Below, one piece after another: positions 16,574 to 18,887 of a stretch of DNA of 32,000 nucleotides (positions are counted from its first letter, which is position 1; each line of letters begins with the position of its first letter). The notes beneath the pieces are model-generated. The model made no database searches. It was not told the DNA's origin and was given only the letters and a program-made list of their open reading frames with translations. This DNA comes from Moraxella nasovis (GTDB lineage: Bacteria; Pseudomonadota; Gammaproteobacteria; Pseudomonadales; Moraxellaceae). The stretch covers positions 120,001-152,000 of the forward strand of contig NZ_CP089976.1 of the NCBI RefSeq assembly GCF_022701215.1, given 5' to 3'. Made by a program: the position numbers and the translations under genes.

Positions 16574-16825
16574 TTAGTAATTGCAATAATAGGTAATGAT
16601 GTCGTCTAAGCCGTCTTGATGTTCATTCAGGATAATTTTAGATACAAGCATATTCGTAAATTGTTCAATATCGTCTTCGCTTTGAAATTTGTTCAAAAAT
16701 TCTGTATCATTCTCCAAATTATCAAAATAATACAAAATATCTTCACGAATGGTATCACCATAAGAACCATTCTTAAATTTTAAACATTCAAAAAATATGG
16801 CTTGTTTTTTACTAAAAGCTAACAT
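16574..16825 (-). CDS. Small acidic hypothetical protein (83 aa), translationally coupled to the upstream nuclease gene
   Basis: The start ATG (16823-16825) overlaps the nuclease stop TAG (16819-16821) in ATGTTAG. I count 16 D/E against 7 K/R. I recognise no family. Confidence 0.6.
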   Translation of the reverse strand: MLAFSKKQAIFFECLKFKNGSYGDTIREDILYYFDNLENDTEFLNKFQSEDDIEQFTNMLVSKIILNEHQDGLDDIITYYCNY

Positions 16826-17592
16826 ATTTCACGCTCTAAATGATATTCTTTAATAGGTTTGGATTGAAGAATCACTTCTTTAAAAGCCAGATTATTGACA
16901 GGATTATCAATCGTCAAAAATAGTGGGATATCATCTAAATTCATCACTAGGGTTAAAATATAATCATGCTTATATTCGCACGCTTTGATGTATTCATTTT
17001 CGGTTAATCGGATTTTACCTTTATTTTGGCGAACACCTTTAATTTCTGCTAAATAATTATTGGTATTGGTGCTAATTTGAAAATCATAACCATCACCAAA
17101 TAGCCTTGCATCTTCTAAAATGCCATTACCAAAAATCTCTATTGTACGGTAGTTATTGATAAAATATAGTTCAGCTTCCAACCCAGTCTCTTGCATTTTT
17201 TTAAATTTAGATTGGGTAATTGGTTCTATTTTGTCTGCAATTAACAAATCACTTACTGCATAATTATTTTTTAAAATAAGTTTTACAATATTAGCATAAT
17301 TGACCACATTTTCATGACCAAATAAACTATCAATCAAAATTTTGCGGTGTTCATAAACTTCCTTTTTCTGCCACCAACCTTGCCTGCCATTATCAAAATA
17401 AGGGTCAAATAAATCTTGGCGATTTTTAACTACGCTTTTGGTCTGCACAATGCCTAAATCTACAAAATATTGATAAAATTGCTCTTTGCTTTTACAGTTA
17501 AATTGTTTGATAAATTCATGATTAAATTTTGCTAAGCCGTAGCCTAGCAAATTTAACAATTCATAATGTTCGTGTTTATTGGCATTATTCAT
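16819..17592 (-). CDS. Putative restriction-type endonuclease, PD-(D/E)xK fold (DUF3883/NOV_C-like C-terminal domain)
   Basis: 257-aa ORF. The C-terminal half has the pattern E(AELYF)...GDGYDFQI-x11-AEIKGV...IRLTENEYIKA...YILTLV, typical of the DUF3883 nuclease core (GYD...E-x-K...NE). Its ATG overlaps the stop of the upstream methyltransferase fragment (ATGA), and it sits in an R-M context. Confidence 0.72.
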   Translation of the reverse strand: MNNANKHEHYELLNLLGYGLAKFNHEFIKQFNCKSKEQFYQYFVDLGIVQTKSVVKNRQDLFDPYFDNGRQGWWQKKEVYEHRKILIDSLFGHENVVNYANIVKLILKNNYAVSDLLIADKIEPITQSKFKKMQETGLEAELYFINNYRTIEIFGNGILEDARLFGDGYDFQISTNTNNYLAEIKGVRQNKGKIRLTENEYIKACEYKHDYILTLVMNLDDIPLFLTIDNPVNNLAFKEVILQSKPIKEYHLEREIC

Positions 17593-18017
17593 ATATAATT
17601 TAGCTTATTTTCCAAAATATCCAAAATTACTTTAAAGGTATTGCCTTTATCATGACTAACAAGATTTTTGACATTTTCCAAAAACACTACTTTTGGGCGG
17701 TGTTTTTCTATGATTTTTTCAATATCAAAAAACAGTGTGCCACGACTATCGGAAAAACCTTTTTGGTAGCCTGCAATAGAAAAGGCTTGGCAAGGAAACC
17801 CTGCACATAATATATCAAAATTTTGTGGAATTTTAGACTTAACTTCATCAAGTGTAATATCGCCAAACGGTACAATACCATGATTAGCAAAATACGTTTT
17901 TTGAGCATTACTATCTATCTCGCTAGCAAAAACACATTCGCCACCAAGCTCTTTTAAGGCAAAGTGAAAACCACCCACACCTGCAAACAAATCAATAAAA
18001 GTAAAATTTTTCATCAT
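17589..18017 (-). CDS. C5 DNA cytosine methyltransferase, N-terminal fragment only (motifs I-VI, M.HhaI-like)
   Basis: 142-aa ORF with motif I FIDLFAGVGGF, SEID, GDIT, motif IV GFPCQAFS (Cys codon 17790-17792), RGTLFF and motif VI ENVKN. It stops at ...ILENKLNYI, where M.HhaI reads MNELDYSF. Motif VIII, the TRD, and motifs IX and X are absent. Confidence 0.85.
   Translation of the reverse strand: MMKNFTFIDLFAGVGGFHFALKELGGECVFASEIDSNAQKTYFANHGIVPFGDITLDEVKSKIPQNFDILCAGFPCQAFSIAGYQKGFSDSRGTLFFDIEKIIEKHRPKVVFLENVKNLVSHDKGNTFKVILDILENKLNYI
17965..18017 (-). repeat. Direct repeat copy 1 (first 53 nt of the 142-aa methyltransferase ORF)
   Basis: 52/53 nt identical to 18835-18887 (offset 870 bp; single mismatch 17979 A vs 18849 G). 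Identity collapses to roughly half immediately outside. Confidence 0.9.
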
Positions 18018-18059
18018 CTTTTCTTCAAATAATTTTTTGATACCATATATAATAGTTGC

Positions 18060-18887
18060 TTAAAATTGAAATTTGGCATTTTCATTTCTCAGAGTTTGTT
18101 GAATTTGTTTGATAATAGCAACCAAAACATTGACCGCCACGCTATTGCCAAATTGTTGGTAGGCTTGCGATTGACTAGAAACAATTTTAAAATCATCACC
18201 AAAGCCCAAAATTCTAGCGCACTCGCGCGTAGATAATTTGCGTACAGTATCGCCTACTTTATAAAGTCCTGTTTTTGAGCCAACACCGCCACCATAAGCT
18301 GATAGCGTAATGGCGTGTCCTAAGGGGTGATAAATGCGTTCACCTTGTCCGCCTTTGCCAACTCTGCCGATTTGAATGGGTTTATTTGGCAAGATTTCTA
18401 AGCCAAACATATCAGATTGACCATCAATGGATCTGGTAAAAACAATGTCATCACGGTGGACAATTTTAGCAATAGGATTATTTTCCAAAAAGTCTTGCAA
18501 ACTTACCTGTTTATCGCTTGGTTTTGGAAAGGTAAACTCTTTGATATTTAAACCTTTATGAAAGCACACAAAATAAATCCGCTCACGATTTTGTGGTAAT
18601 TCAAAATCAGACGCATTTAAAATTTGATAATAAACATGATAATTAAGCTCATCTAAAATACTTAATACCGTTTTTAGCGTATTACCTTGATCATGCTGTG
18701 GAATGTCGTTCTCGTGAATGTCTGTGATATCGCCAAATGGTTCAATATGAAAATTCGCCTGATAAGTCTTTTGGGCGTGTTTATCCCATTCGGACGCAAA
18801 GACGCATTCTGCACCAAACTTGGACAATGCCAAATGAAAACCACCCACGCCTGCAAACAAATCAATAAAAGTAAAATTTTTCATCAT
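18060..18887 (-). CDS. C5 DNA cytosine methyltransferase homolog of M.HhaI (GCGC-type TRD) with in-frame loss of catalytic motifs IV-VI
   Basis: 275-aa ORF with motif I FIDLFAGVGGF, SEWD and GDIT. IPQHD then joins directly to QGNTLKTV, so PCQ and ENV are missing. After that come PQNRERIY (VIII), the TRD GKGGQGERIYHPLGHAITLSAYGGGVGSKTGLY (M.HhaI: GKGGQGERIYSTRGIAITLSAYGGGIFAKTGGY), RKLSTRECARILGF (IX) and QFGNSVAVNV (X). Confidence 0.85.
   Translation of the reverse strand: MMKNFTFIDLFAGVGGFHLALSKFGAECVFASEWDKHAQKTYQANFHIEPFGDITDIHENDIPQHDQGNTLKTVLSILDELNYHVYYQILNASDFELPQNRERIYFVCFHKGLNIKEFTFPKPSDKQVSLQDFLENNPIAKIVHRDDIVFTRSIDGQSDMFGLEILPNKPIQIGRVGKGGQGERIYHPLGHAITLSAYGGGVGSKTGLYKVGDTVRKLSTRECARILGFGDDFKIVSSQSQAYQQFGNSVAVNVLVAIIKQIQQTLRNENAKFQF
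18835..18887 (-). repeat. Direct repeat copy 2 (first 53 nt of the 275-aa methyltransferase ORF)
   Basis: 52/53 nt identical to 17965-18017. Both encode MMKNFTFIDLFAGVGGFH. Confidence 0.9.

Follow-up and report, generated by a model that had tools for sequence, protein, structure and literature searches.

The locus and its genes

The window analysed here is a stretch of 32,000 nucleotides (nt) from Moraxella nasovis (contig NZ_CP089976.1, positions 120,001 to 152,000 of the forward strand), and all window positions are counted from its first letter. Between the genes tsaB and uppP it contains an island of 2.3 kb (16574-18887) whose content of guanine plus cytosine (GC) is around 30 %, as against around 42 % in the surrounding DNA. 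The island holds four open reading frames (ORFs), all on the minus strand: two genes related to 5-methylcytosine (m5C) DNA methylases, the gene of a nuclease of 257 amino acids (aa), here called c0, and the gene of a small acidic protein, here called c1. The pair formed by c0 and c1 is the subject of this analysis, and the features of the island are as follows.

18060..18887, minus strand: 275-aa orthologue of the methylase M.HhaI, with an in-frame deletion (phmmer search against the PDB)
17589..18017, minus strand: 142-aa N-terminal remnant of an m5C methylase, motifs I-VI (PF00145, positions 1-132 of 324)
16819..17592, minus strand: c0, 257-aa two-domain nuclease (ORF; relatives in 357 species genomes)
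17188..17592, minus strand: N-terminal domain of c0, aa 1-135, putative recognition or reader module (phmmer relatives, invariant motif)
16915..17172, minus strand: C-terminal DUF3883/NOV_C PD-(D/E)xK domain of c0, aa 141-226 (PF13020)
16819..16825, minus strand: 7-nt overlap of c0 and c1, ATGTTAG (sequence; translational coupling)
16574..16825, minus strand: c1, 83-aa acidic helical protein (ORF, structure model, substitution rates)

The genes are tightly packed. Indeed, the stop codon of the 142-aa methylase ORF overlaps the start of c0 (ATGA), and the 3' end of c0, GAA ATA TGT TAG, contains the start of c1 (ATG TTA G), so that the positions and the overlap of the c0 stop with the c1 start given in the initial annotation of this DNA can be retained. 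A scan of the island for promoters and terminators returned nothing above the shuffled expectation. c0 is 100 % identical to the NCBI entry P0001 from Moraxella nasovis, which is annotated merely as 'DUF3883 domain-containing protein'; a look-up of the exact protein in the assembly index gave no match.

The nuclease domain and its maintenance

The C-terminal part of c0 is a nuclease domain. PF13020 (NOV_C) matches residues 141-226 with an E value of 1.1e-14 and 54.6 bits, the gathering cut-off of the family being 22.1 bits, and the catalytic residues D167, D170, E183 and K185, in the arrangement G-D167-G-Y-D170 ... E183-x-K185, are invariant in 81/81 c0 sequences. The AlphaFold 2 (AF2) model of the protein has a mean predicted local distance difference test score (pLDDT) of 69, with the blocks of the C-terminal domain mostly at 78-91, and presents an alpha/beta core. 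The best Foldseek matches of this model in the PDB are Hjc (probability 0.99), the nuclease domain of SPARDA, SwaI and MspJI, which places the catalytic residues on a restriction-endonuclease-like fold. Comparison with PDB sequences at E<=10 gave noise only, searches of NCBIfam and PHROGs gave no match, and the PADLOC matches of c0 are limited to the C-termini of TmtA, at 1e-7. In particular, c0 evolves with a ratio of nonsynonymous to synonymous substitution rates (dN/dS) of 0.06-0.17 at synonymous distances (dS) of up to 1.5-2.7. Strong purifying selection thus keeps c0 without a working methylase, as the state of the neighbouring methylase genes makes clear.

Neither of the two methylase ORFs of the window is self-sufficient, a point already made in the initial annotation. 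The 275-aa ORF is an orthologue of M.HhaI (E 1.3e-75, phmmer against the PDB) with an HhaI-type target-recognition region, and its alignment falls into two blocks, residues 4-66 corresponding to HhaI 11-73 and residues 61-265 to HhaI 123-321. HhaI residues 74-128 are therefore missing in frame, that is motifs IV-VI with the catalytic PCQ and ENV motifs. The 142-aa ORF covers the N-terminal 40 % of another m5C methylase (positions 1-132 of 324 in PF00145). The join left by the deletion in the 275-aa ORF lies between two His-Asp dipeptides (IPQHD followed by QGNT), and the deletion looks like a microhomology-mediated event. The first 52 nt of the two ORFs (18836-18887 and 17966-18017, minus strand) are identical at 51 of 52 positions, beyond which the identity is roughly two-thirds; this pattern suggests gene conversion, or the integration of one gene via recombination in the conserved motif-I region. 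Between them, the 142-aa ORF supplies motifs I-VI and the 275-aa ORF motifs I-III and VIII-X along with a recognition domain of the HhaI type. Separate halves of an m5C methylase are known to complement each other, and GCGC methylation may not have been lost in the window if these fragments do so.

The situation in other genomes points the same way. When one genome per species was scanned, 357 genomes proved to encode a relative of c0, and the best 80 loci were compared. They come from Bacteroidota, Moraxellaceae, Campylobacterota, Patescibacteria, Cloacimonadota, Streptococcus, Treponema and others, with c0 at 58-82 % identity. In its fullest form the cassette has the order m5C methylase, c0, small protein and a further gene, c3 (352-400 aa). 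c3 carries an NgoFVII-type B3-like DNA-binding domain, its form c3A matches a PADLOC model of type II restriction endonucleases (E 1.5e-243), and homologues on plasmids bear the annotation of NgoFVII-family or PLD restriction endonucleases. The cassette thus has its type II enzyme in c3, a gene that the window lacks. Across the loci c3 is usually fragmentary. The methylases that abut c0 belong to the family of the 142-aa ORF, with 66-75 % identity, and all 28 such ORFs (loci L003-L080) are 3'-truncated at variable points and lack motif X, while methylases located elsewhere in the same loci, a few kb off, are complete. No intact ancestor of a c0-abutting methylase was seen among these loci, and about half of the loci compared have no methylase at all within 5 kb. 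An HhaI-type methylase was found in none of the 80 related loci.

An origin of c0 as a homing-type insertion into a methylase gene was considered and rejected, as the search for the downstream half of the methylase beyond the cassette yielded only a fragment, in two Runella loci. Serial deletions anchored at the start of c0 fit better. Full-length c3 ORFs also occur beside dead methylases reduced to remnants of 85-273 aa (L009, L032 and L081-L086), always in the company of c1 or of a second small protein, c4, and one Chitinophagales contig type of this kind was seen in 139 index blocks. It is possible that such cells hold another methylase elsewhere, that the endonuclease misses a required partner, or that the enzyme is neutralised.

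These data bear on the proposal, made in the initial annotation from gene position, that c0 is the cognate endonuclease of the HhaI-like methylase, which has its counterpart in a pairing of c0 with the methylase of the 142-aa remnant. c0 does have several traits of a classical type II enzyme, namely a PD-(D/E)xK core, a place immediately behind methylase genes, where its start and a methylase stop overlap, and, as for R.HhaI (about 258 aa) and R.HinP1I, a similar size and, in the window, a neighbouring HhaI-type methylase. However, no PDB chain matches c0 in sequence, and neither R.HhaI nor R.HinP1I, both of which are presumably in the PDB as solved structures, is among the Foldseek matches listed, in line with the earlier remark that c0 does not resemble these enzymes. 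PADLOC gives no REase_II match for c0, as compared with E 1e-243 for c3. No other locus pairs c0 with an HhaI-type methylase, this neighbour being unique to the window, and co-occurrence with an intact cognate methylase was not found in the 80 loci, where the abutting methylases are truncated while c0 is under selection. Since c0 is maintained where the methylase is dead or absent, and the type II enzyme of the cassette is c3, it is very improbable that c0 is a classical type II enzyme.

A modular N-terminal domain

The remainder of c0 is a separate domain. Residues 1-135 have no match in Pfam, NCBIfam or PADLOC, and yet this is the most conserved part of the protein, with a nearly invariant motif, K56-N-R-x-D-L-F-D-P-x-F-x-N-x-R-x-G-W-W-Q-K76. 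In the AF2 model the domain is helical, and the conserved loop 52-92 has low confidence. A phmmer search with the domain against 1.8 billion representative proteins returned 155 relatives in several architectures. The domain is found at the N-terminus of the McrB-like AAA+ GTPase P0376 (NF008457 McrB, E 7e-40), with 32 % identity over 103 aa, at the C-terminus of the TIR protein P0374, ahead of the restriction-like nuclease P0293 (PADLOC REase_II), and in proteins of 230-430 aa that hold no known domain. As judged from these architectures, it is a modular, exchangeable unit shared with McrB-like, TIR and further nuclease effectors. By analogy with the position it occupies in the McrB-like protein, the domain would recognise a feature of DNA, and the feature sensed may be a DNA modification. 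Both domains had been anticipated in the initial annotation: the DUF3883-like PD-(D/E)xK core finds its confirmation in the PF13020 match and the invariant residues, and the N-terminal part that was thought to provide specificity is indeed a separate, modular domain.

The recurrence of c0 beside m5C methylases of several kinds, and its abutting the 3' end of an m5C methylase as is typical of vsr genes, might also be read as the mark of a Vsr-like nuclease that serves these methylases in very-short-patch repair; the conserved aromatic GWWQ loop could then be imagined to intercalate into DNA. Against this, c0 persists without a methylase, coexists with a true Vsr in one locus (L087) and has no match to Vsr in Pfam, and its N-terminal domain is also fused to a McrB-like GTPase and to TIR effectors. 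A role of this kind is scarcely credible.

Another resemblance concerns the first helix of c0, LLNLLGYGLAKF (residues 10-24; window 17520-17565, minus strand), which is similar to the motif-X helix PPLLAYNLAKRI of the m5C methylase of locus L105 (575-1936). Motif X is the part missing from every c0-abutting methylase. A derivation of this helix (LLGYGLAKF) from methylase motif X (LLAYNLAKR in L105) was set aside, as the similarity covers about 10 residues only and may be due to chance; it is reported as a curiosity.

The small acidic protein

c1 is a real, folded and conserved protein of an undescribed family. It contains 16 D/E against 7 K/R, exactly as counted in the initial annotation, and has an isoelectric point (pI) of 4.24. 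By our own estimate, about 8 % of random codons are stops at 30 % GC, and 83 open codons would be met by chance with a probability of about 0.001. In 59 of the 80 related loci, the start of a small acidic ORF falls at this same -6 offset. The pair is thus conserved in other genomes, and the lack of such conservation, which the initial annotation named as a ground for refuting its proposal, is not seen. The dN/dS of c1 is 0.1-0.5, including pairs of loci that have neither methylase nor c3. A profile search recovered 401 clusters of proteins of 85-93 aa, all of them 'hypothetical'. The AF2 model of c1 is a five-helix bundle with a pLDDT of 90.4 and a predicted template modelling score of 0.80.

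The family has no described relatives in the collections searched. In particular, c1 and its family profile have no sequence relatives in Pfam, NCBIfam, PADLOC or PHROGs, with noise only from the PDB, and Foldseek comparison of the c1 model with the PDB and BFVD gave nothing below E=1. The Foldseek check that had been suggested for both proteins thus relates the core of c0 to Hjc and other nucleases and leaves c1 with no match. The view that c1 is neither a controller (C) protein nor Vsr stands, given that no helix-turn-helix (HTH) family of Pfam matches it at E<=1 and no PDB fold resembles it. Like the DNA mimics Ocr, ArdA and T4 Arn, c1 is small, strongly acidic and associated with restriction. 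Unlike them, it is encoded by the host beside the nuclease that would be its target, and it has no match among the folds of the PDB and BFVD, which we take to include Ocr, ArdA and Arn. An origin of the pair as an anti-restriction function of phages or plasmids was dropped, because neither the phage nor the plasmid collection contains c1, and c0 has no match among the phages and one distant match among the plasmids.

Partners and contexts of c1

c1 is not the only small protein found at this position. According to family hidden Markov models, c1 is present in 53 of the 80 loci and c4 in 19 (c1 only 49, c4 only 15, both 4, neither 12), which leaves 68 loci with c1 and/or c4. c4 is an unrelated acidic protein of 61-73 aa with the pattern CPxC...CxxC, probably a zinc ribbon, and it either replaces c1 at the same overlapping start or follows c1 (L004, L006, L007, L009, L010, L014, L018, L022, L025, L033, L048, L052, L055, L071 and L075). 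c0 proteins that are 90-97 % identical are accompanied by c1 in some genomes and by c4 in others. The choice follows the downstream gene: c1 goes only with c3A and c4 only with c3B, while methylase and c0 stay 90-97 % identical, which locates a recombination break at the junction between c0 and the small gene. A c0 position that tracks the type of partner was looked for, and none was found. In about 10 of the 12 loci with neither small protein, c0 is full-length and retains every invariant residue, which suggests that c0 is not intrinsically lethal.

c1 in turn occurs without c0. The c1 profile identified 49 metagenome loci, of which 22 have c0 and another 22 have room for c0 and lack it; the c0-free copies of c1 have a median dN/dS of 0.13. 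c1 lies directly after McrB and McrC in one locus (L133, 3938-4207), directly before McrB and McrC in another (L136, 1615-1884), and immediately behind an m5C methylase and a different type II enzyme (REase_II, PDLC03508) in a third (L105, 3006-3275). Because c0-free copies are found beside McrBC, beside a type II system and outside nuclease operons, and are under selection, c1 is an accessory protein of restriction loci in general and not of c0 alone.

About 17 Flavobacterium-type contigs (L097-L137; for example L100, 4001-4495) carry a c1-c4 pair without c0 and with an upstream region of its own. The pair adjoins the gene of a ribosome hibernation factor and stands in divergent orientation to a C-protein-like HTH gene and a helicase of the DUF2075/SLFN type (PADLOC PDC-S41). 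In Flavobacterium sp. MDT1-60 (L087), the c1-c4 pair lies downstream of Vsr, a methylase, R.Eco47II and c0, again beside the gene of a ribosome hibernation factor.

Two accounts of c1 compete with a role as accessory of c0. According to the first, put forward in the initial annotation, c0 is a DNase that would damage its own host and c1 neutralises it until a trigger arrives, in the manner of toxin-immunity, toxin-antitoxin or abortive-infection modules. Colicin DNases with their Im proteins and barnase with barstar show the same layout, and the resemblance to colicin E9 DNase-Im9, to barnase-barstar and to toxin-antitoxin modules of reversed order extends to the nature of c1 as a small (about 85 aa), acidic, stably folded helical protein, encoded directly downstream and coupled through an overlapping start. 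The pair also outlives the decay of the methylase and the type II enzyme, as would be expected of an addictive module, and the adjacency is broad, both in the 59 of 80 loci with the -6 offset and in the 68 with c1 and/or c4. However, a toxin should not be kept without its partner and the partners should vary together, and the loci show otherwise: c0 with all catalytic and invariant residues stands without a small partner in about 10 of 80 loci, c0 proteins that are 97 % identical carry either c1 or the unrelated zinc-ribbon c4, so that the swap leaves c0 unchanged, and roughly every second metagenome locus centred on c1 has no c0, its c1 having a dN/dS of about 0.13. Moreover, c1 has no fold or sequence similarity to such proteins, the lack of any PDB fold match meaning none to a solved immunity protein, and a dN/dS near 0.07 over deep divergence is not what one would expect of a toxin that is masked all the time. 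This account is somewhat weakened by the comparison and is regarded as possible, though rather unlikely.

According to the second, c1 is not the partner of c0 at all and works with the downstream c3, or with restriction nucleases generally, as a non-HTH analogue of a controller or as a safety catch, the copy in the window being a functional leftover. The strict pairing of c1 with c3A and of c4 with c3B, with the break falling at the c0/small-gene junction, speaks for this account, and c1 and c4 lie directly upstream of an NgoFVII-family restriction gene, where a canonical NgoFVII-family system on a Priestia plasmid has its HTH controller. The intact c3 genes beside dead methylases always have c1 or c4 next to them, and in other loci c1 comes after McrC or after a different type II enzyme. 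On the other hand, linkage alone would yield the pairing of c1 with c3A, and the start overlap couples c1 to c0 and not to c3. In addition, purifying selection maintains c1 in lineages whose loss of c3 predates their divergence, among them the window compared with Moraxella catarrhalis and four Acinetobacter loci, and as an acidic protein (pI 4.2-4.3) with no HTH by Pfam or Foldseek, persisting without a restriction gene, it differs from C proteins and is no classical controller. An exclusive tie of c1 to other nucleases thus appears unlikely.

A proposed Type IV-like defence nuclease with a co-translated accessory protein

The reading favoured here, with chances judged to be about even, is that c0 is a self-standing, methylase-independent defence nuclease of a Type IV-like kind that carries a new reader domain and is accompanied by c1 as a co-translated accessory protein. 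Type IV enzymes are defined by the combination of a specificity domain and a nuclease domain, and small DNA-binding modules that can be exchanged are present in homologues of McrB (PMC11090510). The modification-dependent enzymes YenY4I and McaZI use DUF3883 as their catalytic domain, and some proteins of this kind are encoded between or next to the genes of a C5-methylase and a type II enzyme (PMC6765204). c0 is assigned to the reader-plus-nuclease enzymes of the Type IV kind because of its architecture, in which a separate N-terminal domain shared with a McrB-like GTPase is joined to a nuclease domain; it has both parts, the specificity part being putative, and is kept with no need for a cognate methylase.

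The closest known systems share some features with the locus and differ in others. As in the YenY4I/McaZI-like DUF3427-DUF3883 proteins (PMC6765204), a C-terminal DUF3883 catalytic domain is placed behind a separate N-terminal module and no cognate methylase is needed; c0 differs in that its N-terminal domain is not PUA/DUF3427 and belongs to no Pfam family, in its length of 257 aa as against 336-601 aa, and in having a co-translated partner. McrBC shares with the locus the use of the N-terminal domain, whose homologue occupies the reader position of the McrB-like P0376, as well as the c1 homologues located beside McrB and McrC (L133 and L136). In contrast to McrBC, c0 has no GTPase and holds reader and nuclease on one chain, and the reader of E. 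coli McrB (DUF3578) is unrelated in sequence.

On the favoured reading, the N-terminal domain of c0 would recognise a feature of DNA and the C-terminal DUF3883 domain (D167/D170...E183-x-K185) would cut; modification-dependence of the cleavage is conceivable by analogy with YenY4I and McaZI. c0 would have entered M. nasovis in a horizontally mobile cassette. In the window, the methylase of this cassette would persist as the 142-aa stump, which may still provide the start upstream and the coupling of translation, the type II endonuclease would be gone, and the HhaI-type methylase gene upstream would be an unrelated one, itself inactivated. c1 would be made in step with c0 via the overlapping start and, as a best guess, would modulate and most likely restrain the activity of the nuclease. 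The regular presence of c1 or c4 next to intact c3 and dead methylases provides an indirect hint of such restraint.

Several observations weigh against this reading. The dependence of c0 on DNA modification is an analogy drawn from architecture, none of the proteins with the N-terminal domain is characterised, and the model gives low confidence to the conserved loop of this domain. c0 adjoins m5C methylases of various types unusually often, among them those of intact Eco47II-type systems, which is awkward for an enzyme that would broadly depend on 5-methylcytosine. As to the accessory role of c1, the protein has no fold neighbours, no c0 residue tracks the type of partner, and in the Flavobacterium-type contigs c1 is under strong selection without a nuclease gene in its own operon. 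One further alternative makes c0 and its small partner a mobile module that colonises and disarms m5C restriction-modification operons, in which the nuclease would sense DNA methylated by the resident methylase, with survival only of cells that lose the methylase, and the small partner (c1 for c3A, c4 for c3B) would neutralise the orphaned type II endonuclease and so keep the loss of methylation from being lethal. Such a module would explain the truncated methylases that abut c0 and the deleted HhaI-type gene, as well as the strict pairing of small protein and endonuclease and the intact endonuclease ORFs beside dead methylases, and is rated as decidedly improbable.

Should the favoured reading of c0 as a Type IV-like nuclease be true, the reader domain of a family found in 357 species genomes from at least 8 phyla would be new, and the N-terminal domain would add to the toolbox of Type IV and other defence systems a specificity module described in no database. 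The truncated methylases that recur beside an intact nuclease would make the conflict between a methylase and a methylation-sensing nuclease a testable one. Similarly, the c1 family, with about 400 clusters located beside at least 4 unrelated restriction nucleases, would represent a host-encoded regulator acting at the protein level, and would thus add a new level of control to those exerted by methylation and C proteins.

The cassette in other Moraxella species

In Moraxella catarrhalis (L001) and Moraxella nonliquefaciens (L064) the cassette occupies other chromosomal sites, and neither uppP nor tsaB is close by. In the latter species c0 has a frameshift, there is no c1, and 43 codons are all that remains of the methylase.

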